DNA from: Thalassospira profundimaris
Lineage (GTDB): Bacteria > Pseudomonadota > Alphaproteobacteria > Rhodospirillales > Thalassospiraceae
Length of the DNA: 24,000 nucleotides
Reading direction: 5' to 3'
Assembly (NCBI RefSeq): GCF_003326755.1
Contig: NZ_JPWH01000001.1
Span: forward strand, 94,227 to 118,226
Shown here: positions 6,647-17,905 of the stretch, in pieces
How the letters are laid out: every line of letters begins with the position of its first letter
Position numbering within the stretch: position 1 is the stretch's first letter
Translations under genes and position numbers: made by a program
The notes under the pieces: model-generated
Told to the model about the DNA's origin: nothing
The model's input: only the letters and a program-made list of their open reading frames with translations
Database searches by the model: none

Positions 6647-7234
6647 CTATTCTGCGTTGTCGTCAGACCGGCGCGGGCCGGTGACATGCGCGATCAATTC
6701 ATCTGTCAGCACGAGTTTCGCCTTTGCGATATCGGCCAACGGCAACAATTCGCGTTCGCCGTCCACTATTATGGCGACCGCATCATCTTCGAGTCCATCC
6801 AGCTTTCCGCTGAAACGGCGGCGACCGGCAACAGCCACCACCAGTTCGACCTTGGCGTCAAAACCGCGCCAAACATCAAAATCCTTGCGCCGGGTCAGGG
6901 GCCGGTCAATTCCCGGCGAACTGACTTCAAGATTGTAAGCACCGGAAATCGGGTCATCGACATCCAGCAATGCCGACACCGTGCGGCTGATTTCAGCGCA
7001 ATCCTCGACATTGATGGTGCCTTTTCCTTCGGGGCGATCCGCCATAATTTGCAGGATCTGGCTGTCCTTGCCCATCATGGACACACGTACCAGTTCAAAC
7101 CCCAGTGCCTCTATCGACGGTGCAATAATATCCGCGATCCGCGACAAAAGCGGGTCTTTCAACTGCTGTCCGATCAGTTCAGCCATATAGAATGCCATAC
7201 CCCAAAATGCACAAAAGAGCGGGCCGGGGCCCAC
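6647..7234 (-). CDS. rimP: Ribosome maturation factor RimP
   Basis: The ORF contains ...IAPSIEALGFELVRV... and LEVSSPGIDRPL, both typical of RimP, and lies immediately upstream of nusA. The true start is probably internal, at the ATG ending at 7198 or 7186, because the first 12-16 codons look non-native. Confidence 0.9.
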   Translation of the reverse strand: MGPGPLFCAFWGMAFYMAELIGQQLKDPLLSRIADIIAPSIEALGFELVRVSMMGKDSQILQIMADRPEGKGTINVEDCAEISRTVSALLDVDDPISGAYNLEVSSPGIDRPLTRRKDFDVWRGFDAKVELVVAVAGRRRFSGKLDGLEDDAVAIIVDGERELLPLADIAKAKLVLTDELIAHVTGPRRSDDNAE

Positions 7235-7350
7235 TCTTTGTTACGTTTTACAAAAAGCTTGCGCGCTGTATAACGCCATTTTCCACAGAAATCAAGTCAC
7301 GATCCTGTCTGTAACGGGCTTTCAACCAAGGGATAACCTGCCCTTGCGCG

Positions 7351-7992
7351 CTAGGCGGCCAGTCGTTGATCCTCAAGCAGAAGACCGTGAAAAAATGCAA
7401 ACGCATCATGGGCCCCCTGCATGAATTCCGCTTCTTCGGCTTCATCCAGCTCAAGTTCGTTTAATTGCGCAACAAATTCGCGCCAGTGCCTGCCACGGCC
7501 ATCGGCATGGCCGCGCAAATGACGGGCCCCAAATGTGTCATCCAGGCCAATATTGCCTGCCGCCTTTAACAAAAAGGCCGCCCCGAGGCTCGACCCTTCA
7601 CAGACATAAAGCCAGCCCAACCGGCCCGGCCCTTTTTGCGGGGCTGCCATGTGTGCCGCTGACGGCGTGGTATCTTTTGGCCGGGCAACATCAAGATCGG
7701 CCAAATCCGCACAAACATCGTCAAACCGGCTGCGCGATGACAGGCCGGGGATCAGATCATTCAAATCCGGCGCCGCATAAAGCGGCTTCATCACCCGGTG
7801 AAAGCAATATTGCATTTTGAGAAAGCGGGCATAATTGACCCGGCTGTCAAACGGCTTCATCGCCATGACCATATCGTCAATTTGCTGATGATCATCGCGG
7901 GTTGCGGCTTTTACCCGTTCGATCCGGGTCATGGCTTGCGCGCTTGCCCCTTGTGAAGACTGGTTCACATTTGCAGACTGATTGGCATTCAT
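7351..7992 (-). CDS. Heme oxygenase (biliverdin-producing, HemO/BphO-like)
   Basis: 213-aa ORF. The N-terminal helix RIERVKAATRDDHQQID carries a candidate proximal His. The distal-helix motif GWLYVCEGSSLGAAFL resembles the bacterial heme-oxygenase 'YVLEGSxLGG' motif. It is the last gene of the heme cluster. The first ~21 codons are low-complexity, so Met22 is an alternative start. Confidence 0.8.
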   Translation of the reverse strand: MNANQSANVNQSSQGASAQAMTRIERVKAATRDDHQQIDDMVMAMKPFDSRVNYARFLKMQYCFHRVMKPLYAAPDLNDLIPGLSSRSRFDDVCADLADLDVARPKDTTPSAAHMAAPQKGPGRLGWLYVCEGSSLGAAFLLKAAGNIGLDDTFGARHLRGHADGRGRHWREFVAQLNELELDEAEEAEFMQGAHDAFAFFHGLLLEDQRLAA

Positions 7993-8119
7993 TGTGGCTG
8001 GCCCCCTTCATCTCGTCCTGAAAATGGCAGGTCTGCACATTGTGTGCATGTCCCTTTGAATCTGAAACGAACCAGCCCTGCCCATATCTGACATTCGCAC
8101 AAAATAAATCGGCATGGCG

Positions 8120-9517
8120 TTATTCCTCACGAAAGGCGCGGGCGAACTGGTCGGCCAGCGGTTTTAGGAAATAACTGAGTGCAGAGCGTTCGCCCGTGGC
8201 AATAAAGGTTTCCACCGGCATACCGGGCATCAGCGGATGATCGCCAAGCCGCGCCAACTCGCCCGGTGTGATGTGCATCCGTACCGGATAGAAATTTTCA
8301 CCCGTTACCTCGTCACGCGACAAATCGGCTGCGACAAAATCCACCTGACCGGCCAGTTCCGGCGTGGTCCGGCGGTTAAAGGCGGTAAAGCGCAACATCG
8401 CCTTTTGCCCCGGATGGATCTGGTCCACATCCTGCGGGCGGGTGCGAACCTCGACCACCAGCGCATCCTGATCCGGCACAATGCCCATAATCTTTTCGCC
8501 CGCGGCAATCACCCCGCCTTCACTATGCACCTGCATTTGATAAATCGTGCCCGCATAAGGGGCGCGAATGTCGGTGCGCTGCAACTGGTCCACCAGGGCA
8601 ATTTGCCGTTGCCGTAGTTCGGCCAATTGGCGTTCCACATCCGAAAGATCGGTCAAAACTTCGGTACGCCGATCCCGTTCCAATTGCAAAATGGCCATTT
8701 CGGTTTCGGCGATTTGGGTTTGAATCGCGGCAATTTCGGATGTCAGCTCGCCATGCTGCCCCTCAAGACGGGCCTTTTCACGGCGCAAGGCCGCCACACG
8801 GGTCACGGGCACCAATTGCTTGGCAAACAGCATTTCCAGCCCGGAAAGCTCGTCCGCAATATGGCGGCCTTGTTCAATATTGGCCGTTTTCTGTGCTTTA
8901 AGGCCGCCAATCCGTTCTTCCAGTTGCAAGCGTTTTTGCTGCAATTGCTGTTTTTCGCCATTCAGGCTGTTTTTGCGGGCCTCAAACAGGCGCGTTTGCG
9001 CATGGATCAAATCGGCAATATCGGGCTGATCGCGCCGGGATGCCAAAACAGCGGGCACGACCGGCACATCCTGTTCATCACGTTCCGCCAACAGGCGCAT
9101 ATGGCGCGCCGTCAACGCATCAATCTGGCTTTCGACAATGCCAAGGCTGGCCCTGGCCCGTGTATCATCCAGCCGCACCAGCATATCCCCGGCCTGCACA
9201 TGATCACCATTGCGGACATATATCTGTCCAACAATGCCGCCATCCGGATGCTGGACAACCTTGGCATTGCTTTCCACGACAATCTTGCCGTTTGCCACCA
9301 CCGCGCCGGACAGATCCGCCAGCATCAGCCATGCCATAAACAGGGCAAATAACGCCAAAATTGATCCGGCACCAAAGAGCATATGCCGCCGCAGCGAATA
9401 TAGGGCCAGGCTTGGTTTATCCCCGTATGGCCGCGCCAGACCCGGCATGCCGGCAACGGGCTGCGTCCCCGCAACTGCCCCGGCGGAAGCGATCATGCGT
9501 TTAAACGGATGAATCAT
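8120..9517 (-). CDS. Type I secretion membrane fusion protein, HlyD family (HasE/PrtE-like)
   Basis: 465-aa ORF with a single N-terminal transmembrane segment, a long coiled-coil region (QQLQQKRLQLEERIGGLKAQK...) and a C-terminal HlyD beta-barrel region. Its start overlaps the ABC gene stop by 4 nt (9514-9517), which suggests translational coupling. Confidence 0.92.
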   Translation of the reverse strand: MIHPFKRMIASAGAVAGTQPVAGMPGLARPYGDKPSLALYSLRRHMLFGAGSILALFALFMAWLMLADLSGAVVANGKIVVESNAKVVQHPDGGIVGQIYVRNGDHVQAGDMLVRLDDTRARASLGIVESQIDALTARHMRLLAERDEQDVPVVPAVLASRRDQPDIADLIHAQTRLFEARKNSLNGEKQQLQQKRLQLEERIGGLKAQKTANIEQGRHIADELSGLEMLFAKQLVPVTRVAALRREKARLEGQHGELTSEIAAIQTQIAETEMAILQLERDRRTEVLTDLSDVERQLAELRQRQIALVDQLQRTDIRAPYAGTIYQMQVHSEGGVIAAGEKIMGIVPDQDALVVEVRTRPQDVDQIHPGQKAMLRFTAFNRRTTPELAGQVDFVAADLSRDEVTGENFYPVRMHITPGELARLGDHPLMPGMPVETFIATGERSALSYFLKPLADQFARAFREE

Positions 9518-11373
9518 GCGCTTTCTCCGACCTGGCGCAGGGTTTTGCGCAAAATGTCATCGCGGCTGCCAAAGGCAACCTGCTGACCGTTCTGGATCAC
9601 GGTGGCGTAATTGACACAGGCCAGAATATGCGGCCGATGGGCAATCATCACCACGATCGCGCCGCGTTCCCGCAAGGCGACCACCGCCTTGATCAGGGCC
9701 TGTTCGCCATCGGCATCCAGGCTGGCATTGGGTTCGTCAAGCACCACCAGAAACGGATCATCAAACAGGGCCCGGGCCAGACCAATCCGCTGGCGCTGCC
9801 CGCCCGAGAGCACAATGCCGCCCGCGCCGATTTGTGTGTCATAGCCATTGGGAAAGGACTGGATCAGGTCATGCACCCCGGCCATTTTGGCTGCGGCAAT
9901 CACCTTTTGCGCATCGGGCCGGGCGGCGAGGCGGGCAATATTGCGCGCAATCGTATCCTCGAACAATTCCACGTCCTGTGGCAGATAACCCACATGCCGC
10001 CCCAGATCATCGCGCGACCAGTGCGACAGTTCCGCCCCGTCAAGGCGGATGGTCCCCTGCAAACAGTGACCAATACCGACAAGGGCACGGGCGAGCGTTG
10101 ATTTTCCTGACCCGCTGGGGCCAATCACGCCCAGGCCATCTCCGGCCTTAAGCTCCAGCCTTGTCACCTTCAATAAAACACGCCCCGTCCCGCTGCCGGT
10201 TCTGATACCGGTTTTACCAGCCGGTCGGGCCGACCGCACCGATGGCGCATGCACAGCCAGAGTTTGTACGGTCAAACTTTCGCACGGGGCGGGCAGGGAC
10301 AGGCGGGGTTGATCCCCCCCGGCGGAAAAGGCGGTTGTGTCCCTGAGTATTTTACCAATCCTGCGATAGGCCTGCCGGGCAGAAACAAATCCGCGCCAAT
10401 TGCCAATCGCCTGTTCCACCGGCGACAGGGCGCGTGCCGTCAGGATCGAGGCTGCCACCATCGCCCCGGGCGAGACTTCCTGCAAAATCGCCAGATACGC
10501 CCCCAGCGCCAGCACCCCCGACTGCATGGCAAGGCGAATGACCTTTATATAGGCGGTAAAGGTCGAGGTGACGTCGCCAGCGGCGGTGTTGGTTTGCAAA
10601 TAGCGGTCATTGACCATTGCCCAGCGGCCCAGAAACGCCGGGACCATCCCCATAGCGCGCAACACCTCGGCATTGCGGCGCCCGGCTTCCAGCAACAGGC
10701 TGCGCCGGGCGGATTGATGATTCAGCCGTTTGACATGACGGCGGGAGAGGATTTCGCTGATCAGGGTCAGGCCGATCAACACCGCCCCACCGGCCAGGGC
10801 CAGCACACCCAGCCAGGGATGCAATAAAAACACAATCCCCATAAAAAGCGGCATCCAGGGCAGGTCGCAAATTGCCACCGGCCCGGCACTGCCGACAAAC
10901 TGGCGGATCTGGTCGAGATCATGCACCGGCCGTGCCTCGGAGCCCGGATGATCCAGCGGATTGCTCAGGGCATGTCGCAAAACATCCGGCCCAGTCTCTT
11001 CATCCACACGCCAGCCGATCCGCACCAGCATCCGGGCACGCAAGGCATCGGCCGTGCCCAAAAACAGATACAGCACCAAAACCAGAATGGTCAGCGCCAA
11101 AAGAGTGGGCATGCTTTGGCTGGCCAGCACCCGGTCATAGACCTGAAGCATGAAAAGCGGGCCGGTCAGCATCAGAATATTGGAAACGCCACTGAGCGCG
11201 GCAACACAATAAAAGGCGCGCCGCAGCGACGCCATGACCCGCGCCAGAGATGACCCGGACGACCCGGACGAACCGGCAGCCCCGGACAAACCTGATGCGC
11301 CGGATGCCCCGACAGATGGGGCAGCGGAATAGGAGGAGGGGGAATAGGCAGCGGTGCTGGCACGCCAAAGCAT
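9514..11373 (-). CDS. Type I secretion ABC transporter, permease/ATPase, PrtD/HasD/AprD class (no C39 peptidase domain)
   Basis: 619-aa ORF. The transmembrane domain begins ...NILMLTGPLFMLQVYDRVL, typical of the PrtD family. ATPase motifs are Walker A GPSGSGKST, signature LSGGQRQRIGLARAL and Walker B FLVVLDEPNASLD. The first 46 codons are a Ser/Gly/Ala low-complexity tract, so an alternative start exists at Met47 (ATG ending at 11235). Confidence 0.93.
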   Translation of the reverse strand: MLWRASTAAYSPSSYSAAPSVGASGASGLSGAAGSSGSSGSSLARVMASLRRAFYCVAALSGVSNILMLTGPLFMLQVYDRVLASQSMPTLLALTILVLVLYLFLGTADALRARMLVRIGWRVDEETGPDVLRHALSNPLDHPGSEARPVHDLDQIRQFVGSAGPVAICDLPWMPLFMGIVFLLHPWLGVLALAGGAVLIGLTLISEILSRRHVKRLNHQSARRSLLLEAGRRNAEVLRAMGMVPAFLGRWAMVNDRYLQTNTAAGDVTSTFTAYIKVIRLAMQSGVLALGAYLAILQEVSPGAMVAASILTARALSPVEQAIGNWRGFVSARQAYRRIGKILRDTTAFSAGGDQPRLSLPAPCESLTVQTLAVHAPSVRSARPAGKTGIRTGSGTGRVLLKVTRLELKAGDGLGVIGPSGSGKSTLARALVGIGHCLQGTIRLDGAELSHWSRDDLGRHVGYLPQDVELFEDTIARNIARLAARPDAQKVIAAAKMAGVHDLIQSFPNGYDTQIGAGGIVLSGGQRQRIGLARALFDDPFLVVLDEPNASLDADGEQALIKAVVALRERGAIVVMIAHRPHILACVNYATVIQNGQQVAFGSRDDILRKTLRQVGESA

Positions 11374-11413
11374 GACTATTGGTGTTCCCGTGATTTGCCG
11401 GTAAGGTAAGGGT

Positions 11414-11445
11414 GGGTGTCGCCCATTTTGCCGTGCGCGACACCC
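11414..11445 (-). other. RNA hairpin (9-bp stem) in the hemophore-exporter intergenic region
   Basis: gggtgtcgc (11414-11422) is the exact reverse complement of gcgacaccc (11437-11445). The loop is 14 nt. Confidence 0.5.
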
Positions 11446-11459
11446 GAGCAGACCATACG

Positions 11460-11499
11460 CCCGTTCCGTGATGAGCCGTCGCGGAACGGGTTTTATTTT
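11460..11499 (-). terminator. Hairpin 13 nt downstream of the hemophore-like gene stop codon; possible attenuator or 3'-end stabiliser
   Basis: cccgttccg (11460-11468) pairs with cggaacggg (11482-11490). The T-tract ttttatttt (11491-11499) follows the stem on the plus strand only. On the coding (minus) strand the hairpin is preceded by an A-tract and has no trailing U-tract, so it is not a canonical intrinsic terminator for this operon. Confidence 0.45.
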
Positions 11500-11502
11500 G
11501 CC

Positions 11503-12231
11503 TTAGACAAAATCATTCTGGTCAATGGTTGCAAAATCAACGCCCGCCAGGGTCACGGTACCATTGGCATGGGTGATGACGGTGTGGCTGGAATCACCGC
11601 TGATGGTGACATCATTGTAATCCAGCCCGATCTGGTCGCTGCCATTTTCAAAATCGGTGATCGTGTCATCGCCAAAGCTGGCACTGGCATCGAATTCAAA
11701 AACGTCTGCACCGCCATTGCCGGTCAAAACGTCATCACCCGACCAGCCTTCAATCACATCAGCCCCGGCACTGCCGTTAATGGCAACACCCTGGGATGCA
11801 AAAATGTTGTCCAGGCTGTCGGTCGAACCGCCGCGCAAGTCAGCCAACACATCATTGGTGTCTGAATTTCCAAGATTGAGCCCGGAAATATCAACCGAAG
11901 AATCAGTGTATTCAGCAAGGCCCGTTGAACTGTCCACACTAAGCGTTTCGCCAAATGATACGGAATCGAGATTCCCAGAAACGGTGTGATTCATGAAGTT
12001 GTAACTGAATTCGCCGGTACCTGTTTCAGCAATAAAACCACCCGTATAGCTGCTGGCACTATCCTGATCATCAAGGGTGAATTGCTCACCTGTAAACGGC
12101 GTAGCGCCCCCGCGAAACTGGCAATAATTGCCAGAACCGGCAGAAAAGTTGGTATTAAAGTCATTCAGAGCGGCCTGCAGATCAACACCATTACCCGAAG
12201 AATCTGCCGTCAGATCAATTTGAATAGCCAT
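11503..12231 (-). CDS. Secreted HasA-like hemophore domain fused to RTX calcium-binding repeats and a T1SS C-terminal secretion domain
   Basis: 242-aa ORF with an AGGAG Shine-Dalgarno 8 nt upstream and no N-terminal signal peptide. By-eye alignment to Serratia HasA: [26 protein letters not shown]...[11 protein letters not shown] versus [29 protein letters not shown]...[10 protein letters not shown]. Residues 153-179 form three RTX nonapeptides: [18 protein letters not shown] and GNGGADVFE. The C-terminus ([21 protein letters not shown]...DQNDFV) resembles RTX-type T1SS target domains. The gene occupies the hasA position between the receptor and the exporter. Confidence 0.75.
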   Translation of the reverse strand: [242 protein letters not shown]

Positions 12232-12271
12232 TACTAACTCCTGTGATATGTGCTTCCCATCATCGGGAAGT

Positions 12272-12296
12272 AATAATGATTATGATTATCATTATT
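12272..12296. promoter_or_regulatory. Two overlapping Fur boxes upstream of the hemophore-like gene
   Basis: aataatgattatgattatc (12272-12290) matches the Fur consensus GATAATGATAATCATTATC at 16/19 positions. gattatgattatcattatt (12278-12296) also matches at 16/19. The two sites are offset by 6 bp and lie 41-65 bp upstream of the ATG at 12231. Confidence 0.8.
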
Positions 12297-12354
12297 TTGG
12301 AGTCAACAGAAAATATCGTTTTATTTCAAATACTTAATTAAAAAAGCACTAAGC

Positions 12355-12380
12355 AGTCGGCGACATATCTGTCGCCGACT
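12355..12380 (-). terminator. Perfect 11-bp hairpin downstream of the receptor gene
   Basis: agtcggcgaca (12355-12365) and tgtcgccgact (12370-12380) are exact reverse complements with a 4-nt loop. The hairpin starts 26 nt after the receptor stop codon. On the minus strand a U-run (from aaaaa at 12341-12345) begins 9 nt after the stem, so the geometry is not canonical for an intrinsic terminator. Confidence 0.55.
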
Positions 12381-12405
12381 TGATGGATACCCAATCTGGA
12401 AACCT

Positions 12406-15141
12406 TCAGAAATTTCCGCTTAAACTCACTGTGATGGTCCGACCTGGAGCCGGAACATAGCCACCTGTTGCGTAAGCCTCATCTGTCAAATTGTTCACGG
12501 AAAATCCCACACTCACCGCTTTGTCGACTTCATAGCTGCCGTAAAGATCATACGTCCGATAACGGTAGAAAATTCCGTTATCGACAGTGGTTGAGGATTC
12601 CGAAATATTACGCGACGGATAAACAAAGGTAGCGCGAGCCCCCAACACCAGATCTTCATCAAACAGGCGAACACCACCATCAACCGTGAATTTGCGTTTG
12701 GGCAAGGTGTAGACTGTCGAAATGCCCTGAATATTTCCGTAGCCCTGCGTATAAACTTGGGTCCCTGCCGGAAAATTCAAAGGAAAAATGACCGGATTGT
12801 AATCGCCAACCATATCTGTATCTGCCTGGGAGAAAGTCCCGCCGATGTAAAAAGTCCGGGCATCGTAAGAAGCTTCAATTTCGGTACCAGTAATATCAAC
12901 CGGATCATACAGATTTACAAAAGCTTCCGCTTGCTCTGAAACACAAAATCCGAAATTGCACCCTGGCGTAGGCTGGTAAACCTGCCCCAAAACCACATAA
13001 TTATCGATCCGCGTATGATATCGGGCAATTCTGGCGCGAAATCCGTCCTGCTTAAACAAAACATTGTCATACTTGAAATTGATACCAACTTCACGCGTGA
13101 CAGATTCTTCAGCTTTAAGATTGTTGTTTGGAAGAAATGCAATTGGCACGCCAGCAACATGTGAGCCTTTAATCATACTTTCCATGATTGAAGGCGGACG
13201 CATGTTTTCCCGATAACTTCCATAAAACTGGATACCGTCGATCGGTGTTACAGCCAGCCGGGCAGAGGGAGAAACCTTTTGACCATTCATATCAATGTCA
13301 ACCGGCGTACCACCCGTGTCACAGTTTTGATCTGCTACCGGTGTAAAAAAGCCGGTTTTACACCAATAAGACGTACCCCTTAGCTGATAACGATCAAACC
13401 GAAGCCCAGCCGTCAGCTCGAAGATACCATTATAGTCAAATGTCGCATTTCCAAACGACCCATAAACATCACGGCGACCACTTGGTGTTGAACCCTCGAG
13501 TTCATAAGCAGCCCCATTCGCCTGATTTCCTATAGACTCGGAAGACGTTTCCGCTTCATCGCGAAATGCTTCAACACCATAATCGAATGTAACATTGCTG
13601 TTCTCAAGTCCCGGATTATCCGGATAGACCCGGCTGGTATTTTCTGCATCAAACCCATAAGTATCAACACGATACAGTGTTTGATACGCCTTCGTATTGC
13701 TTCTCGGCGGACGATATTGGTTATTTTGGGTCCGCGTCCACCAGACGCTGCTTTTAAGATCAACAATTTCGGAATCAGGATTCCAGTGATGTTTCGCTGT
13801 TACAGTATGCGTCTCGACATCATTGAAATCATTATAGATATTGTTTGCGTCTGTCGTTTTGCCAAAGCTGCTGGTAAAACCAACATATCCAAGATTTAAA
13901 TCCTGTTCCTCGTTGAAATGAATATTGGCCTTTACCAACCCGGAAGTCTGACGTTGATAAGTATAAGCCTCATGCCCATTATCGGCTGATACGGTTGTTG
14001 GGGTCCCGCCACTATCAAAGGTGGTATAAAGGGCAGGATTATTTGTGCCTCCCTTATAATCACCAACCACTTTCCGACTTACGGCTGCCGCCATGTCAAA
14101 TTTTGGGGAAAATCGCATCCCGGCGGAAATATCACCGGCAAAATTATACTCGTTTGTCCCGCGACGGATATCATATTTGCCCCCCCATTTTTCGTCGGCA
14201 TCAAGAATATCGTCGGTATTCAAGGTACGCATGGTAACGATACCGCCAGAGGTTCCGGCACCGCCAACCCCTGACAAATCGGTTTTTTCCACAACAACAT
14301 CTGCCAATAAGGCCGTATCAACATACGCCGAGTTGGAAATGCCGTGACCAGACTGGTTGTAATTCTGTCGTGCACCATCAATATTCATGTTGACCCGGCC
14401 TTGATCCTGCTGTCCTCGCACATTAATCGACAGCCCGGGAACCTGTTGATTTCCATCAACCTTTACACCAGCCAGGGGTTCAAAAATATCTCCTGCCGTT
14501 CGGCCTGGAACTTTACGCATTTGTTCTCGCGTAATGACACTTGTTGACCCTGGTGTTTCATAAACCCAGTCAGGATTTCCCATATATCCCGGTTCATTCA
14601 TTGTTCGTGCCGAAATAACCACCGGCGCAGTCATGACGGCAGAAGATGACTGATCCATCTGGTCAGTCTGATGCGCCACAATCGACACCGTATGTGAATC
14701 CAGCACCTGCCATGTCAGGCCGCTACCACCTAATAAACGATCCAGCGCCTGGCGCGCCGTCATGTCACCGGCAAAGGCAGCCGTCAGGCGATTGGTCGGC
14801 AGGCTGCCATCAACCACCACATCAATGCCGGTGATTTTTGAATATTCCACCAGCGCCAGAGCGAGCTTTTGGGCCGGAATATCAAAACGGTACGATTGAT
14901 CCAGGGTACCACTTTGTGCCAGTTCATCCCTCGCAGGACGGGCATCTGCCCCCACATCGGTCCCCGCCAGTGCCCCCTGCGGGATAAATGCCAGCAAACA
15001 TCCGCAAAGCGCGGTCGCAGCAAGCGTTTGCGCCAAATCGCTGCGTCTTCGTCCCAATGTCATGTCCCCTGACACCAACGTCCGGCAGATCCCCACGGAT
15101 AGTCCATTTATGCGTCTCCTAAATATGCAAATGCTTCGCAT
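12406..15141 (-). CDS. TonB-dependent heme/hemophore receptor with an N-terminal signalling (STN) domain, HasR-like transducer
   Basis: 911-aa ORF. The STN-type extension spans about aa 84-150 (FDIPAQKLALALVEYSKITGIDVVV...ARQALDRLLGGSGLTW). A plug domain and a beta-barrel follow, ending in a terminal aromatic residue (...SLSGNF). A heme-receptor FRAP/NPNL-like pair with an intervening His is present: YRENMRPPSIMESMIKGSHVAGVPIAFLPNNNLKAEES (aa 643-680). A more plausible start with a signal peptide is Met27 (ATG ending at 15063; MTLGRRRSDLAQTLAATALCGCLLAFIPQGALA). Confidence 0.9.
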   Translation of the reverse strand: MRSICIFRRRINGLSVGICRTLVSGDMTLGRRRSDLAQTLAATALCGCLLAFIPQGALAGTDVGADARPARDELAQSGTLDQSYRFDIPAQKLALALVEYSKITGIDVVVDGSLPTNRLTAAFAGDMTARQALDRLLGGSGLTWQVLDSHTVSIVAHQTDQMDQSSSAVMTAPVVISARTMNEPGYMGNPDWVYETPGSTSVITREQMRKVPGRTAGDIFEPLAGVKVDGNQQVPGLSINVRGQQDQGRVNMNIDGARQNYNQSGHGISNSAYVDTALLADVVVEKTDLSGVGGAGTSGGIVTMRTLNTDDILDADEKWGGKYDIRRGTNEYNFAGDISAGMRFSPKFDMAAAVSRKVVGDYKGGTNNPALYTTFDSGGTPTTVSADNGHEAYTYQRQTSGLVKANIHFNEEQDLNLGYVGFTSSFGKTTDANNIYNDFNDVETHTVTAKHHWNPDSEIVDLKSSVWWTRTQNNQYRPPRSNTKAYQTLYRVDTYGFDAENTSRVYPDNPGLENSNVTFDYGVEAFRDEAETSSESIGNQANGAAYELEGSTPSGRRDVYGSFGNATFDYNGIFELTAGLRFDRYQLRGTSYWCKTGFFTPVADQNCDTGGTPVDIDMNGQKVSPSARLAVTPIDGIQFYGSYRENMRPPSIMESMIKGSHVAGVPIAFLPNNNLKAEESVTREVGINFKYDNVLFKQDGFRARIARYHTRIDNYVVLGQVYQPTPGCNFGFCVSEQAEAFVNLYDPVDITGTEIEASYDARTFYIGGTFSQADTDMVGDYNPVIFPLNFPAGTQVYTQGYGNIQGISTVYTLPKRKFTVDGGVRLFDEDLVLGARATFVYPSRNISESSTTVDNGIFYRYRTYDLYGSYEVDKAVSVGFSVNNLTDEAYATGGYVPAPGRTITVSLSGNF

Positions 15142-15207
15142 TATCTTTGTCTATCCATTATGACGAACTGAAACGTCAGATATCCGAAAGGAGGGGAAAC
15201 ATTTTTT

Positions 15208-15226
15208 GCAAATAATTTTTATTATC
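15208..15226. promoter_or_regulatory. Candidate weaker Fur box in the receptor upstream region
   Basis: The reverse complement gataataaaaattatttgc matches the 19-bp Fur consensus at 13/19 positions. It sits in the AT-rich part of the 229-bp gap between the anti-sigma and receptor genes. Confidence 0.4.
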
Positions 15227-15370
15227 AAAACAGAAAGGCAAAAAGGAGGACAAGGAACAGTTCTGTCGAAGGAGCAGGAGCAAGCCAGCAAGACGGGCAA
15301 TGCCAAAAACGGATGAAGAAAGGATCGTAAAAACCTGCTTATTGGGCCCAAAGACCCCAGCCACAGCGCA

Positions 15371-16318
15371 TCATGCGGCACGTAAAATGGTCAGATAGCG
15401 GCCGATCTGATCAACCTCGACATTCAGCGCCTTGCCCATCAACGGTAAAATATCGGCTGTACGGTCAAGATTAACCACCAGCGTCACAGGGCGCTTTTTA
15501 AGCTGTTCGCCCAGCACGATGATTTTCCCCGGTTGCCAGCGTTGTAAAACAGTTGCCACATGGGCCAGCGGATCTCCGACAAAAACCAGCTTCCCCTGCC
15601 GCCAGGCCAGCCGAACAGCCAGATCCACCGGACGTGGCATCCCCATATCGCCCGGTGCAAAAGACATGGCCTGGCCCGGCAAAATGCTGTGATGACCGGC
15701 ATTTAGGGTCACATCCAGCGACCCGTTCGCGGCGATCACGTCCCCACCCGCATCATAATGGGAAATGTCAAACCGGGCTGCTTCACGCGGCCGGGTGACA
15801 AGACCCGCCGCCTGAACAAAGAAGCCCGGCTGACGACCATCATGTTCAATAAAAACCTCGCCCTCATGAAGGGCAAGGCCGGTCTGCCCAAACTGGTTTT
15901 GCACCAGCGACAGCGATGTCTGACTGGCCAGTTCGGCCTGAATACCCGGCATGACGGTTATGTTGCGCCTCTCCCCCCTGGAAGCGGCAAAATCGGCAAA
16001 GGGATGATGGGGAATGATCCTGCCATACCAGCCTGCGGCCCCAACCAGACCAACCGCCAGCCCCGCCCCCAAAAAGGCCCTTCGGCCAAGGGTCCGTGCT
16101 GGTTCCGACATATCCAGGCTGGAGGTGCCAGCCCAAAGACGTTCGATGTCAAGAAAAGCCTGGCGATGGGTTTCATCGGCTTCAATCCAGCGGGCAAATG
16201 CCTGCCGGTCCTGATCCGTTTCCGCCCCGTCCAGCAGCAGGGCAAACCAGTAAATTGCCTGCTCGGAGACATCATCTGCCGGTGGATTTTCAAAGATCGC
16301 GTTGCTTCGTTCCATCAT
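15371..16318 (-). CDS. FecR-family transmembrane anti-sigma factor / sigma regulator (HasS-like)
   Basis: The N-terminal anti-sigma region reads AIYWFALLLDG...DRQAFARWIEADETHRQAF. A single transmembrane segment (AFLGAGLAVGLVGAAGWYG) is followed by a periplasmic FecR domain. The track ORF starts at a TTG at 16342. I place the start at the tandem ATGs at 16318/16315 (MMERSN...). Confidence 0.88.
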   Translation of the reverse strand: MMERSNAIFENPPADDVSEQAIYWFALLLDGAETDQDRQAFARWIEADETHRQAFLDIERLWAGTSSLDMSEPARTLGRRAFLGAGLAVGLVGAAGWYGRIIPHHPFADFAASRGERRNITVMPGIQAELASQTSLSLVQNQFGQTGLALHEGEVFIEHDGRQPGFFVQAAGLVTRPREAARFDISHYDAGGDVIAANGSLDVTLNAGHHSILPGQAMSFAPGDMGMPRPVDLAVRLAWRQGKLVFVGDPLAHVATVLQRWQPGKIIVLGEQLKKRPVTLVVNLDRTADILPLMGKALNVEVDQIGRYLTILRAA

Positions 16319-16406
16319 GCGTCTGTCCCAACTGCACAACAAACCCGCACATAAAGCAGGGCTTTTTCTTATGACGAAGCAGCCACGACAATATCCGAGG
16401 GGAATT

Positions 16407-16916
16407 TCAGTTTTTTTCGTCGATTTTGGTTTGATCGCGCAGCAGTGTTAAGGCACGCACCATCCGGCTAAAGGCCGTTTGTGGCGGAATACCAAGTTTC
16501 TCGCCAATTTCGGCATAGGTTTTGCCTTCAAGACGGGCCAGAACAAAAACCTCGCGGGTGGATGCTGGCAATTTGTTAATTGCACTCTGCAATCGGCGTA
16601 ATTCCTGCCGGGACCAAACGATCTGGTCCGGCAAAGGGCTGTCACTGGCGACATATTCGAGGCTTTTTTCCGCATCCGGCACGAATTTCAAAATCCGTTC
16701 GCGGCGAAAATGGTCAACAACCAGATTTTGCGCCGTGCGATACAAATAGGATTGCGCATATTTCACGTCGGGCAGGGACGGCGTTGCCACAACCCGCAAA
16801 AATGTATCCTGCACGATGTCATCGGCGGTGTACCAGGCCAGTTTCCGCTTCTGAACAAAATGCCGCAATCGCGCGTGATACGTGCGAAAAAGCTGATTGA
16901 TATCCCACTGAGTCAC
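16407..16916 (-). CDS. ECF sigma-70 family sigma factor, FecI-like (HasI-like)
   Basis: 169-aa ORF with a GTG start. Region 2 reads DIVQDTFLRV...YLYRTAQNLVVDHFR. Region 4 carries the HTH motif YAEIGEKLGIPPQTAFSRMVRAL. The gene lies directly upstream of the FecR-like gene. Confidence 0.9.
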   Translation of the reverse strand: MTQWDINQLFRTYHARLRHFVQKRKLAWYTADDIVQDTFLRVVATPSLPDVKYAQSYLYRTAQNLVVDHFRRERILKFVPDAEKSLEYVASDSPLPDQIVWSRQELRRLQSAINKLPASTREVFVLARLEGKTYAEIGEKLGIPPQTAFSRMVRALTLLRDQTKIDEKN

Positions 16917-17008
16917 GAACCTGACCTTCTGAAACGCAGCCGTCCATTATCTGTCGCTTTGCGACAACGGGACGGACAATGTCATGTTGGTGTTACAGCA
17001 GGAATATC

Positions 17009-17027
17009 GCATATGAAAATCATTCTC
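17009..17027. promoter_or_regulatory. Fur box upstream of the ECF sigma gene
   Basis: gcatatgaaaatcattctc matches the Fur consensus at 14/19 positions. The core tgaaaatcattctc matches TGATAATCATTATC at 12/14. It lies about 93-111 bp upstream of the sigma start codon. Confidence 0.65.
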
Positions 17028-17074
17028 AATAAAATTTTACATCAATGTATCGATGAATGCTGCCTTCTGACATC

Positions 17075-17108
17075 ATGAAAAAGGCCCTTCGAGCATGCGA
17101 AGAGCCTT
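17075..17108 (-). terminator. Rho-independent terminator of trmB
   Basis: The minus-strand RNA reads GGCUCUUCG-CAUGCU-CGAAGGGCC, a 9-bp stem including one G.U pair, followed by UUUUUCAU. It begins 27 nt after the trmB stop codon. Confidence 0.8.
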
Positions 17109-17134
17109 GAATTGATGGTTTTCTGCCACCGTTA

Positions 17135-17905
17135 TCAGCTACGGGCTTTCCGGCGAAACCGCAAATAGTTGCACTTTTTACCCTGGCGCAATGCCTTTTG
17201 CTCATAGCGGGTTTTTACCCAGTCTTCCGGCGGATTGCGCCAGTCATCCGGGCTTTCGGCCAGCCATTCAAAATCCGGATGATTATGCAGGTGCTGGAGC
17301 GTCCAGGAAATATACTGCATATCATCGCTGGCCACCCGAAACTCGCCGCCATCCTTGATCAAGCGTGCCAGCAACGCCAGATTTTTCGGACCGACAAAGC
17401 GCCGTTCGGCATGGCGCTTTTTCGGCCACGGATCGGGGAACAGCAAAAACACCCGGGCAAAGCAGGCATCCTGCAACTTATAGAGCAGCGGGCGGGAATC
17501 ATCGGGCACGATGCGCACATTTTCCAAATTCCGCTCGCTGATATGGCGGACCATGCTGCTGACCCCATCCATATAGGGTTCACAGCCGATAATACCGATA
17601 TCCGGGTTGGCTTCGGCCTGCCCGGCCAAATGTTCACCGCCACCAAACCCGATTTCCAGCCACACTTCCCGGCGATCGGGCGCAAAATAGCTGCGCGGAT
17701 CAATTCCGGCCTGGTCGGGATAATCGATGGTCAGTTTGGGCAACAGTTCATCCATCAGAACTTTGCGCGACGCCTTGGGCGCACGGCTGCCACGGCGGCC
17801 ATAAAAATTGGGGCGGTCTGGGGTCGGAATGGGTCTGTTGCTACGCATGGTTTTTCTGGCAATTTTAAAGGCGAAACGGGCGGGTTTAAAAACCCCCCGC
17901 CTCAT
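17135..17905 (-). CDS. trmB: tRNA (guanine46-N7)-methyltransferase TrmB
   Basis: The ORF contains LEIGFGGGEH (SAM-binding motif) and LLFPDPWPKKRHAERRF, the hallmark TrmB motif. The start may be internal, at Met20 (ATG ending at 17848). Confidence 0.92.
   Translation of the reverse strand: MRRGVFKPARFAFKIARKTMRSNRPIPTPDRPNFYGRRGSRAPKASRKVLMDELLPKLTIDYPDQAGIDPRSYFAPDRREVWLEIGFGGGEHLAGQAEANPDIGIIGCEPYMDGVSSMVRHISERNLENVRIVPDDSRPLLYKLQDACFARVFLLFPDPWPKKRHAERRFVGPKNLALLARLIKDGGEFRVASDDMQYISWTLQHLHNHPDFEWLAESPDDWRNPPEDWVKTRYEQKALRQGKKCNYLRFRRKARS

Follow-up and report, generated by a model that had tools for sequence, protein, structure and literature searches.

HasA hemophores are described in reviews as standard substrates of type 1 secretion systems (T1SS) that carry no RTX domain or GG repeats, depend on SecB, and have 'primary recognition sites' spread over the polypeptide (PMC8277102, PMC4648471). 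What, then, is a protein in which a HasA-like domain is followed directly by RTX repeats, and how does such a protein come about? This question is raised by a stretch of 24,000 nucleotides (nt) from Thalassospira profundimaris (contig NZ_JPWH01000001.1, positions 94,227 to 118,226; the whole stretch is called the window here), in which an open reading frame (ORF) at 11503..12231 on the minus strand encodes a protein of 242 amino acids (aa), referred to below as the hemophore. We consider it likely that this protein is an iron-regulated, T1SS-exported member of the HasA family, which would bind heme through Tyr77 and His82 and pass it to an adjacent HasR-like receptor, with an RTX tail that would serve in exporter recognition and in Ca2+-dependent folding outside the cell. 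The new observations are that the hemophore domain varies together with the receptor barrel, and the RTX tail together with the exporter, and that a breakpoint lies at the junction between the two domains of the hemophore.

A HasA-like domain followed by RTX repeats

The hemophore ORF has an ATG start with an AGGAG motif 8 nt 5′ of it, and its product is 100% identical to the database entry 'calcium-binding protein [Thalassospira profundimaris]'. The protein is strongly acidic (pI 4.05; 39 D/E vs 2 K/R). Three parts can be distinguished:

11788..12231, minus strand: HasA-like, predicted heme-binding domain (aa 1-148), from Pfam, the AlphaFold model, Foldseek and alignments; Tyr77/His82 dyad present, His32 loop absent
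11695..11775, minus strand: three RTX nonapeptides (aa 153-179), from PF00353, a GxxGxDxUx regular expression and a 9-residue strand period in the model
11503..11694, minus strand: beta-rich C-terminal cap and putative uncleaved T1SS signal ending D-F-V, with the stop codon, from partial matches to serralysin, RTX toxin and EglC models and from Foldseek

A sequence-only reading of this DNA had placed the ORF at these coordinates and had likened residues 1-145 to HasA by eye; both points are upheld by the searches made since. The two Pfam families that it had named each score above their gathering scores, namely HasA (PF06438; 35.3 bits against 26.3, E=1.2e-8, aa 31-152) and HemolysinCabind (PF00353; 27.5 bits against 23, aa 151-177). 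In a single-sequence phmmer search of the Protein Data Bank (PDB), only HasAp chains came at the top, with E~0.003. Profile-profile comparison by hhalign of 26 RTX-type N-terminal domains (N-domains) with 15 canonical HasA sequences gave a probability of 99.7% with E=4e-26 over 140 columns. An AlphaFold2 model was built on a 22-sequence family alignment, and the best of five models reached a mean predicted local distance difference test (pLDDT) score of 91.5 and a predicted template-modelling (TM) score of 0.85. When this model was searched against the PDB with Foldseek, the top 44 matches were all HasA proteins, from P. aeruginosa, P. protegens, S. marcescens and Yersinia, with E-values down to 5.7e-10 (HasAp) and target TM scores of 0.59-0.68; the next matches were to the RTX beta-roll region of the Pseudomonas MIS38 lipase (E=4e-5). 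The HasA fold is recovered in this way for the N-terminal half, with profile and fold matches covering residues 1-148. Both the fold and the Tyr75/His83 dyad are alike in HasA of Serratia marcescens, P. aeruginosa (HasAp) and P. protegens (PF06438; PDB 1b2v, 1dkh, 3ell, 8ki1).

Tyr75 is the axial heme ligand of HasA, and His83 is its hydrogen-bond partner. Y77 of the hemophore aligns to Tyr75 and H82 to His83, both in a MAFFT alignment of 89 sequences and, independently, in hhalign with HasA proteins taken from databases. The hairpin between Y77 and H82 is three residues shorter than in canonical HasA. The two residues are invariant in the 22-member close family, and across the larger alignment the Tyr is kept in 87/89 and the His in 83/89 sequences. 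The loop that carries His32, the second axial ligand, is deleted in the hemophore in both alignments. Among 30 representatives without RTX repeats, 16 have a His at this column, and these are essentially the canonical proteins ending in ..LAA; among 57 RTX-type representatives only 2 have it. From 52 of these 57, which keep the Tyr/His dyad, the loop is missing. His32 is not universal even in canonical HasA, given that the canonical protein P0136 has Gln at the His32 column. Yersinia pestis HasA likewise has Gln32.

Since the dyad is kept and the His32 loop is deleted, heme would be expected to be five-coordinate, probably with Tyr77 as its only ligand and H82 as the hydrogen-bond partner. HasA of Yersinia pestis and Y. 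pseudotuberculosis (PDB 4jes, 4jet, 4jer, 4y1q) are good fold matches (query TM ≤0.51, target TM ≤0.68), and Yersinia HasA reportedly holds heme by Tyr75 alone, without His32 as a ligand. Yersinia HasA has no RTX tail and keeps the loop with a substitution, whereas the window protein lacks the loop altogether.

The hemophore also contains a lone cysteine, Cys37 (nt 12121-12123), at a position that is Gly in 76 of the 89 relatives. Cys37 adjoins Y36 and falls within the short stretch that stands in place of the His32 loop; among close relatives residue 36 is Y, H or F, and across the wider subfamily it is R, Y, F or W. A strain-specific distal ligand could be present here, or the feature could be without meaning.

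With the His32 arm missing, the HasA-fold domain might bind a ligand other than heme, such as another metalloporphyrin, a breakdown product of chlorophyll or cobalamin, or a hemoprotein surface. Loss of the loop in most dyad-keeping RTX-type representatives would fit such a change of ligand, as would the hypervariability of the N-domain between strains and the many non-natural metal complexes, those of tetraphenylporphyrin, phthalocyanine and salophen among them, that HasA accommodates in matching PDB structures. We nevertheless regard a non-heme ligand as quite improbable: the dyad, which is specific for heme iron, is almost invariant, the receptor encoded next to the hemophore scores as a TonB-hemin protein and keeps a FRAP/His/NPNL-like signature, the operon closes with a heme oxygenase gene, and relatives of the hemophore lie in hmu heme-uptake loci.

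The tail that follows this predicted heme-binding domain begins with the nonapeptides GSAGADVIE (aa 153), GWSGDDVLT (aa 162) and GNGGADVFE (aa 171), spaced at nine residues, and the AlphaFold2 model has strands of the same period at residues 149-152, 159-161, 168-170 and 177-179. The number and position of these repeats (aa 153-179, nt 11695-11775) are as first reported; their pattern is GxxGxDxUx, which all three fit, and not the strict GG form GGxGxDxUx that had been assigned to them. The last ~90 aa give partial matches to RTX or C-terminal regions of serralysin, RTX hemolysin and EglC models, and they match AlgE4, CyaA and HlyA chains in the PDB by phmmer. Together with the Foldseek match to the RTX region of the MIS38 lipase, the serralysin matches confirm the suggestion that this tail resembles those of RTX proteases. 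At the C-terminus (...QNDFV), the close family shows no variation at D237, D240, F241 or V242; 15 of 15 aligned canonical relatives end in LAA, as opposed to NDFV here.

In having repeats that lead to a beta-roll and an uncleaved C-terminal signal with an acidic residue followed by hydrophobic ones, the tail is like those of serralysins and family I.3 lipases (for example, the Pseudomonas sp. MIS38 lipase, PDB 2z8x). The very acidic pI and the exporter subfamily (TIGR01842) are also shared with substrates of the PrtD/AprD/LipB type. In contrast to the serralysins and lipases, the passenger here is a 148-aa domain predicted to bind heme and not an enzyme, and there are only three repeats. A motif search of the hemophore found no HEXXH, in agreement with the sequence-only reading, and a protease identity was rejected as there is no Peptidase_M10 match either. 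The possibility of an assembly chimera was also rejected, because the same ORF is present in 14 loci.

From sequence and model, the hemophore appears as two modules, a HasA-fold domain (aa 1-148) and a short RTX beta-roll with a C-terminal cap (aa 149-242). It has the profile, the fold and the Tyr/His dyad of the HasA family, and lacks the canonical His32 loop and the repeat-less ..LAA end; three RTX nonapeptides and a beta-roll tail ending in D-F-V are what it adds to canonical HasA. In its sequence features the protein qualifies as an RTX substrate of a T1SS.

A mosaic hemophore gene and the neighbouring receptor gene

The junction between the two modules is also a boundary in ancestry. GC content is 0.41-0.49 across ~11800-14500, a region that comprises the hemophore domain, the intergenic region and the plug and barrel of the receptor. 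By part, it is 0.46-0.47 in the hemophore domain, 0.42-0.49 in the receptor plug and barrel, 0.52-0.55 in the tail and ~0.62 in the exporter. Like the hemophore domain, the plug and barrel are hypervariable from strain to strain.

The loci compared were the window, L004, L007, L008 and L012-L021, the last ten of which were added by scanning species-representative genomes. Among the genomes found, that of L007 is the closest, with nt identities of 90% for metK, 96% for rimP and 93% for nusA. Relative to L007, the RTX tail is 95% identical in nt and 97% in aa, and the product of the exporter gene, hasD, is 92% identical in aa. Identity in aa is only 54% for the hemophore domain, which blastn does not align, and 48% for the receptor barrel. 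In a 60-nt sliding comparison, identity to L007 jumps from ~55% to 95-98% at ~11790-11800, corresponding to codon 148/149, at the HasA/RTX junction. The recombination breakpoint lies exactly at this domain junction. It is instead the more distant L008, a TARA scaffold with a metK identity of 84% in nt, that has the most similar hemophore domain (83% aa) and barrel (85% aa). On the opposite side of the variable region divergence is gradual, with nt identities of 90% for the sigma factor gene, 80% for the anti-sigma factor gene and 74% for the receptor STN domain, and a barrel that is barely alignable.

The same division is seen when the parts of the locus are correlated. The values below are Spearman coefficients of aa identity over the 91 pairs of the 14 loci, pairs that are not independent of one another; hasE is the gene for the membrane-fusion adaptor.

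Hemophore domain with receptor barrel: rho 0.87 (partial r 0.90 when controlling for housekeeping identity)
Hemophore domain with RTX tail: rho 0.25
Hemophore domain with hasD: rho 0.27
Hemophore domain with housekeeping genes: rho 0.13
RTX tail with hasD: rho 0.82
RTX tail with hasE: rho 0.75
RTX tail with housekeeping genes: rho 0.67

Identity of the anti-sigma factor tracks that of the sigma factor (rho 0.92) and of the receptor STN domain (rho 0.65), and the STN domain follows the anti-sigma factor and not the barrel. Individual comparisons agree with these figures. L008 and L013 are essentially identical in their housekeeping genes, 98% identical in the tail and 99% in hasD; their hemophore domains are 64% and their barrels 62% identical. 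Similar tails also go with N-domains that differ widely. The homologue P0004 has a tail 97% identical to that of the window protein and an N-domain only 55% identical to it, and P0030, P0016 and P0007 share a tail type, the N-domain of P0030 being 41% identical to that of the window protein.

The simplest reading of these data would be repeated allelic replacement of a matched cassette of hemophore domain and receptor barrel, with the RTX tail, the exporter and the adaptor inherited with the chromosome. Co-variation of this kind is indirect evidence for two interactions, which would be those of the N-domain with the receptor and of the tail with the exporter.

The surrounding locus and its control

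The other genes of the cluster, all on the minus strand, are the following:

16407..16916, minus strand: extracytoplasmic function (ECF) sigma factor, HasI/FecI-like (Pfam Sigma70_r2, Sigma70_r4_2 and Sigma70_ECF; NCBIfam sigma70-ECF 88 bits, with FecI-like partial matches)
15371..16342, minus strand: anti-sigma/sigma regulator, HasS/FecR-like (Pfam DUF4880, 51 bits, and FecR; NCBIfam FecR partial match)
12406..15141, minus strand: HasR-like TonB-dependent heme receptor of 911 aa with an N-terminal STN domain (Pfam STN, Plug and TonB_dep_Rec_b-barrel)
9514..11373, minus strand: HasD/PrtD-type T1SS ABC exporter (NCBIfam type_I_sec_PrtD, TIGR01842, 677 bits against a cutoff of 510, aa 48-610; Pfam ABC_membrane and ABC_tran)
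8120..9517, minus strand: HasE/HlyD-type membrane-fusion adaptor (NCBIfam type_I_hlyD, TIGR01843, 394 bits against a cutoff of 209; Pfam HlyD_3)
7351..7992, minus strand: heme oxygenase (Pfam PF01126, 86.9 bits)

The receptor scores 434 bits on the NCBIfam model TonB-hemin (TIGR01785; cutoff 317) and carries a FRAP-like MRPPS motif (aa 647), then a His, then an NPNL-like NNNL motif (aa 672). The exporter and adaptor genes, which overlap by 4 nt, lie directly downstream of the hemophore gene, and the adjacency of ABC and adaptor genes pointed out in the sequence-only reading is therefore confirmed. Pfam and NCBIfam scans found no C39 or CLD domain in the ABC exporter. By its predicted products, the locus is of a complete has type, comprising ECF sigma factor, anti-sigma factor, STN-bearing heme receptor, hemophore, ABC exporter, adaptor and heme oxygenase. 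Its logic is that of hasISRADE(F)B, with an ECF sigma factor, an anti-sigma factor, a signalling HasR-type receptor, a hemophore, a PrtD-family ABC exporter without an N-terminal peptidase-like domain, and an adaptor; it differs from the canonical has cluster in having a heme oxygenase gene and in lacking hasF and hasB.

The cluster is flanked by housekeeping genes, metK and trmB at one end and rimP, nusA and infB at the other. The place of the has-type cluster (7351-17905 in the window) between trmB and rimP-nusA-infB is the same in each of the 14 Thalassospira loci, as is the position of the heme oxygenase gene. Gene order is also the same throughout these 14 Thalassospira/Rhodospirillales loci. 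Given this constant housekeeping position, the locus is ancient in the genus, with only the inner cassette turning over.

The annotated start of the exporter gene is a separate matter. Residues 1-46 of the ABC ORF (11236-11373) are a low-complexity Ser/Gly/Ala stretch outside the PrtD model, which matches from aa 48. The called lengths of orthologues vary (551, 578 and 595 aa), and near the start of the ORF, around 11270-11315, there is a steep loss of identity to L007 and L008. The true start is probably M47, at 11235.

Signals around the hemophore gene were found as follows:

12340..12380, minus strand: terminator-like hairpin and U-run after the hasR stop codon, AGTCGGCGAC-AGAT-ATGTCGCCGACT then GCTTTTTT
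12306..12279, minus strand: promoter-like site TTGACT-16-CATAAT (promoter scan, 10/12 positions)
12272-12296, minus strand: two overlapping Fur boxes, over the spacer and -10 region of the promoter-like site
11459..11491, strand not assigned: hairpin (33-nt inverted repeat) in the hasA-hasD intergenic region; the terminator scan matches on the plus strand only

The hairpin after hasR has a fold z of -5.4, and none of 200 shuffled sequences folds as well. Each Fur consensus match has 2 mismatches, with 0.00 expected from 100 shuffles, and Fur-like boxes are also located 49-73 nt upstream of the hemophore orthologues in L004, L007 and L008; none was found upstream of the hemophore homologues in the Rhizobiales loci examined. 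Three weak Fur-like sites with 5/19 mismatches occur at 17009-17027, upstream of the ECF sigma gene, and at 15208-15226 and 15127-15145, around the receptor start. Besides these three and the sites at 12272-12296, the 24-kb window contains no Fur-like sites with ≤5 mismatches. With a promoter-like site of its own and a strong, conserved Fur box, iron-responsive expression of the hemophore gene is well supported at the level of sequence. Fur control is established for the has system of Serratia, and the Fur box is thus a further feature shared with that system.

The intergenic hairpin has a T-run, TTTATTTT, on the plus strand, where no gene ends, and is 89-95% conserved with L007. It was considered as an attenuator that sets the ratio of hasA to hasDE, and was dropped because, read as minus-strand RNA, it lacks a U-run and reaches only z = -0.96.

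From these elements a course of events can be proposed. Under iron limitation, Fur would leave the box that overlaps the hemophore gene's own promoter, and the hemophore would be exported unfolded in one step through the adjacent PrtD-type ABC exporter, the HlyD adaptor and a TolC-like channel encoded elsewhere. Its RTX tail would fold upon binding extracellular Ca2+, and the N-domain would capture heme and dock on the adjacent HasR-like TonB-dependent receptor, which would import the heme for the heme oxygenase encoded in the locus. We infer further that the receptor STN domain would signal through the FecR-like anti-sigma factor to the ECF sigma factor, which would then up-regulate the system. 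In Thalassospira, the hemophore domain and receptor barrel would form a co-inherited, horizontally exchanged specificity cassette, and the RTX tail, the ABC exporter and the adaptor a constant secretion module.

Several points weigh against this interpretation. The loop that carries the second axial heme ligand is deleted. The other four of the five AlphaFold2 models are poorer, with pLDDT 64-81. The nonapeptides number only three and are degenerate, none of them (0/3) having the second Gly of strict GGxGxD, and Ca2+ dependence of hemophore folding may therefore be weak. Between metK/trmB and rimP/nusA, neither an outer-membrane factor (TolC/HasF) nor a dedicated TonB (HasB) was found; HasF is also unlinked in Serratia. 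As minus-strand RNA, the intergenic hairpin has a 9-bp GC-rich stem that is statistically undistinctive. Heme genes were not found in two of eight non-Thalassospira contexts of RTX-type homologues (L003 and L010). Finally, the correlations come from only 14 loci and from non-independent pairs, although the effect is large and agrees with the breakpoint and the GC shift.

Distribution and meaning of RTX-tailed HasA-like proteins

The N-domain profile was searched against 1.84 billion cluster representatives at E≤1e-3, and 95 proteins matched. Architectures were counted for the 87 of these that are shorter than 700 aa. In 57 of the 87, two or more RTX-like nonapeptides start directly after the HasA-like domain, and most of these proteins end in D-F-x-F-V or similar; the architecture is thus present in at least 57 clusters at the 50% identity level. 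All named RTX-type members are alphaproteobacterial (Thalassospira, Pseudovibrio, Shinella, Rhizobium, Ensifer/Ciceribacter, Mycoplana, Methylobrevis and Pseudorhodoplanes). Canonical HasA proteins have 184-218 aa, no repeats, an ..LAA end and the His32 loop. A homologue search with a broad subfamily alignment returned only the close Thalassospira family and nothing extra.

The sequence-only reading had spoken of a distinct hemophore subfamily, and the absent His32 loop and the D-F-x-F-V end in place of ..LAA bear this out. It had also called the protein chimeric. A fusion of HasA with RTX it is, though not a singular one, the architecture being old and spread over all these clusters. Whether the combination might already be widespread and characterised had likewise been raised: it is widespread, and no paper characterising it was found. 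No description of an RTX-bearing HasA was met in the open-access full-text literature, and subscription journals may hold one; the sole paper found on 'HasA-like + RTX' concerns a filamentous haemagglutinin of Dechloromonas. The architecture is already in databases and partly auto-annotated, and is a variant within a known family, not a new system.

Most RTX-type members are annotated as 'calcium-binding protein', '(Ca2+-binding) RTX toxin-like', 'hemolysin' or 'serralysin', and some have been auto-annotated as 'heme acquisition protein HasA' by NCBI. Taken at face value, the former names, together with the weak single-sequence match to HasAp in the PDB (E=0.003), would suggest a generic RTX exoprotein (a toxin, an adhesin or a 'calcium-binding protein') with an N-terminus that merely resembles HasA, or else an assembly or fusion artefact. 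This can be given next to no weight and is already largely refuted by the computations. The evidence from HasA profile, profile-profile comparison and fold is strong, the ORF architecture recurs in 14 independent Thalassospira loci as well as in the clusters counted above, the heme-uptake context and the Fur box are specific, and the database names derive from the RTX Pfam match only.

The auto-annotated HasA proteins of Pseudovibrio, Shinella and Rhizobium (e.g. WP_008546373.1, WP_241949299.1 and WP_137155827.1) have the same HasA and RTX architecture as the hemophore and, in L005 and L006, has-type contexts like that of the window; their N-domains are only ~30% identical to that of the window protein, and they are known from database annotation alone. 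Outside Thalassospira, six of the eight RTX-type homologues whose context was examined adjoin a TonB-dependent receptor or a heme-uptake locus. Sigma factor, anti-sigma factor, TonB-dependent receptor and hemophore genes follow one another in L005, are joined by an ABC gene in L011, and by an ABC and a full adaptor gene in L006. In L001 a TonB-dependent receptor gene is followed by the hemophore gene, and L002 and L009 are hmu-type loci with ABM heme-degrading genes. In L010, the surroundings of the homologue P0075 (302 aa, at 7001-7909) are prophage-like and include genes for portal, terminase, S78 peptidase and HicB.

Some giant RTX proteins contain a HasA-like domain as well, either N-terminally or internally, namely P0065 (1453 aa), P0080 (934 aa), P0093 (781 aa), P0122, P0128 (3118 aa) and P0133 (2576 aa). 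In P0128 the domain is at aa 1024-1115, and the protein has 24 strict GGxGxD motifs. Heme-binding modules may therefore sit on large surface RTX proteins.

A related alternative for the hemophore itself is that it stays with the cell, its Ca2+-loaded RTX tail holding the exported protein at the surface in the manner of RTX S-layer proteins and adhesins, so that heme would be captured beside the receptor without loss to seawater. It is not obvious what an RTX tail would do for a binding protein of 25 kDa other than serve its secretion, giant RTX proteins with HasA-like domains (P0093, P0080, P0065, P0128 and P0133; 781-3118 aa) are of a kind that is typically surface-associated, and secreted public goods would be diluted around a marine organism. 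We think surface retention unlikely, however: the hemophore shows neither an anchoring motif nor a retention module or LapG-type site, its tail resembles those of freely secreted serralysins and lipases, and the rest of the locus fits the paradigm of a diffusible HasA.

If the hemophore is a diffusible HasA-family protein, as we favour, the relation between its RTX-tailed subfamily and canonical HasA is of evolutionary interest. In a rough, unrooted neighbour-joining tree of the N-domains, canonical HasA is essentially set apart, with one clade of 21 sequences that holds 17 of 19 canonical HasA, two RTX-type and two unclassified proteins; the tree is too rough to decide which form is ancestral. 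In P0079 (269 aa) and P0092 (276 aa), the HasA domain is followed by one or two RTX-like motifs, and the chain has a canonical-style ..LAA end all the same; the two proteins are possible intermediates between the two types and would then bear on the ancestral form. As a tentative idea, which we hold to be possible and no better than that, RTX-tailed hemophores would be the ancestral, modular HasA, and the RTX-less, SecB-dependent HasA of gammaproteobacterial textbook examples a derived form from which the repeats were lost. The RTX tail would then be a universal, Ca2+-driven secretion adaptor that frees hemophore domain and receptor barrel to be swapped among strains as a matched cassette. Negative frequency-dependent selection, for instance through heme piracy by neighbours or through phage and bacteriocin pressure on the receptor, would be the likely driver. 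If true, this would parallel the pyoverdine/FpvA types, with a protein 'siderophore' in free-living marine bacteria.

For the HasA family, the RTX-tailed subfamily contradicts the textbook generalisation that HasA has no RTX. It provides a ready natural comparison for what the repeats add, which may be SecB independence, a Ca2+ ratchet or exporter recognition; no secB gene was found in the 24-kb window. It also lets one ask what repeats do for a small, fast-folding passenger and how HasA evolved. Since 'calcium-binding protein' or 'hemolysin' is the mistaken annotation of most members, they are overlooked in present genome surveys of heme uptake.

For the organisms, hemophore-mediated heme uptake, which has been studied almost only in pathogens, would extend to Alphaproteobacteria that live free in the sea and in soil, habitats in which the recycling of heme is important for the iron cycle. 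The sharp breakpoint at the domain junction and the co-variation of hemophore and receptor point to strain-specific hemophore/receptor pairs, and such pairs would bear on cooperation and cheating over protein-based public goods.

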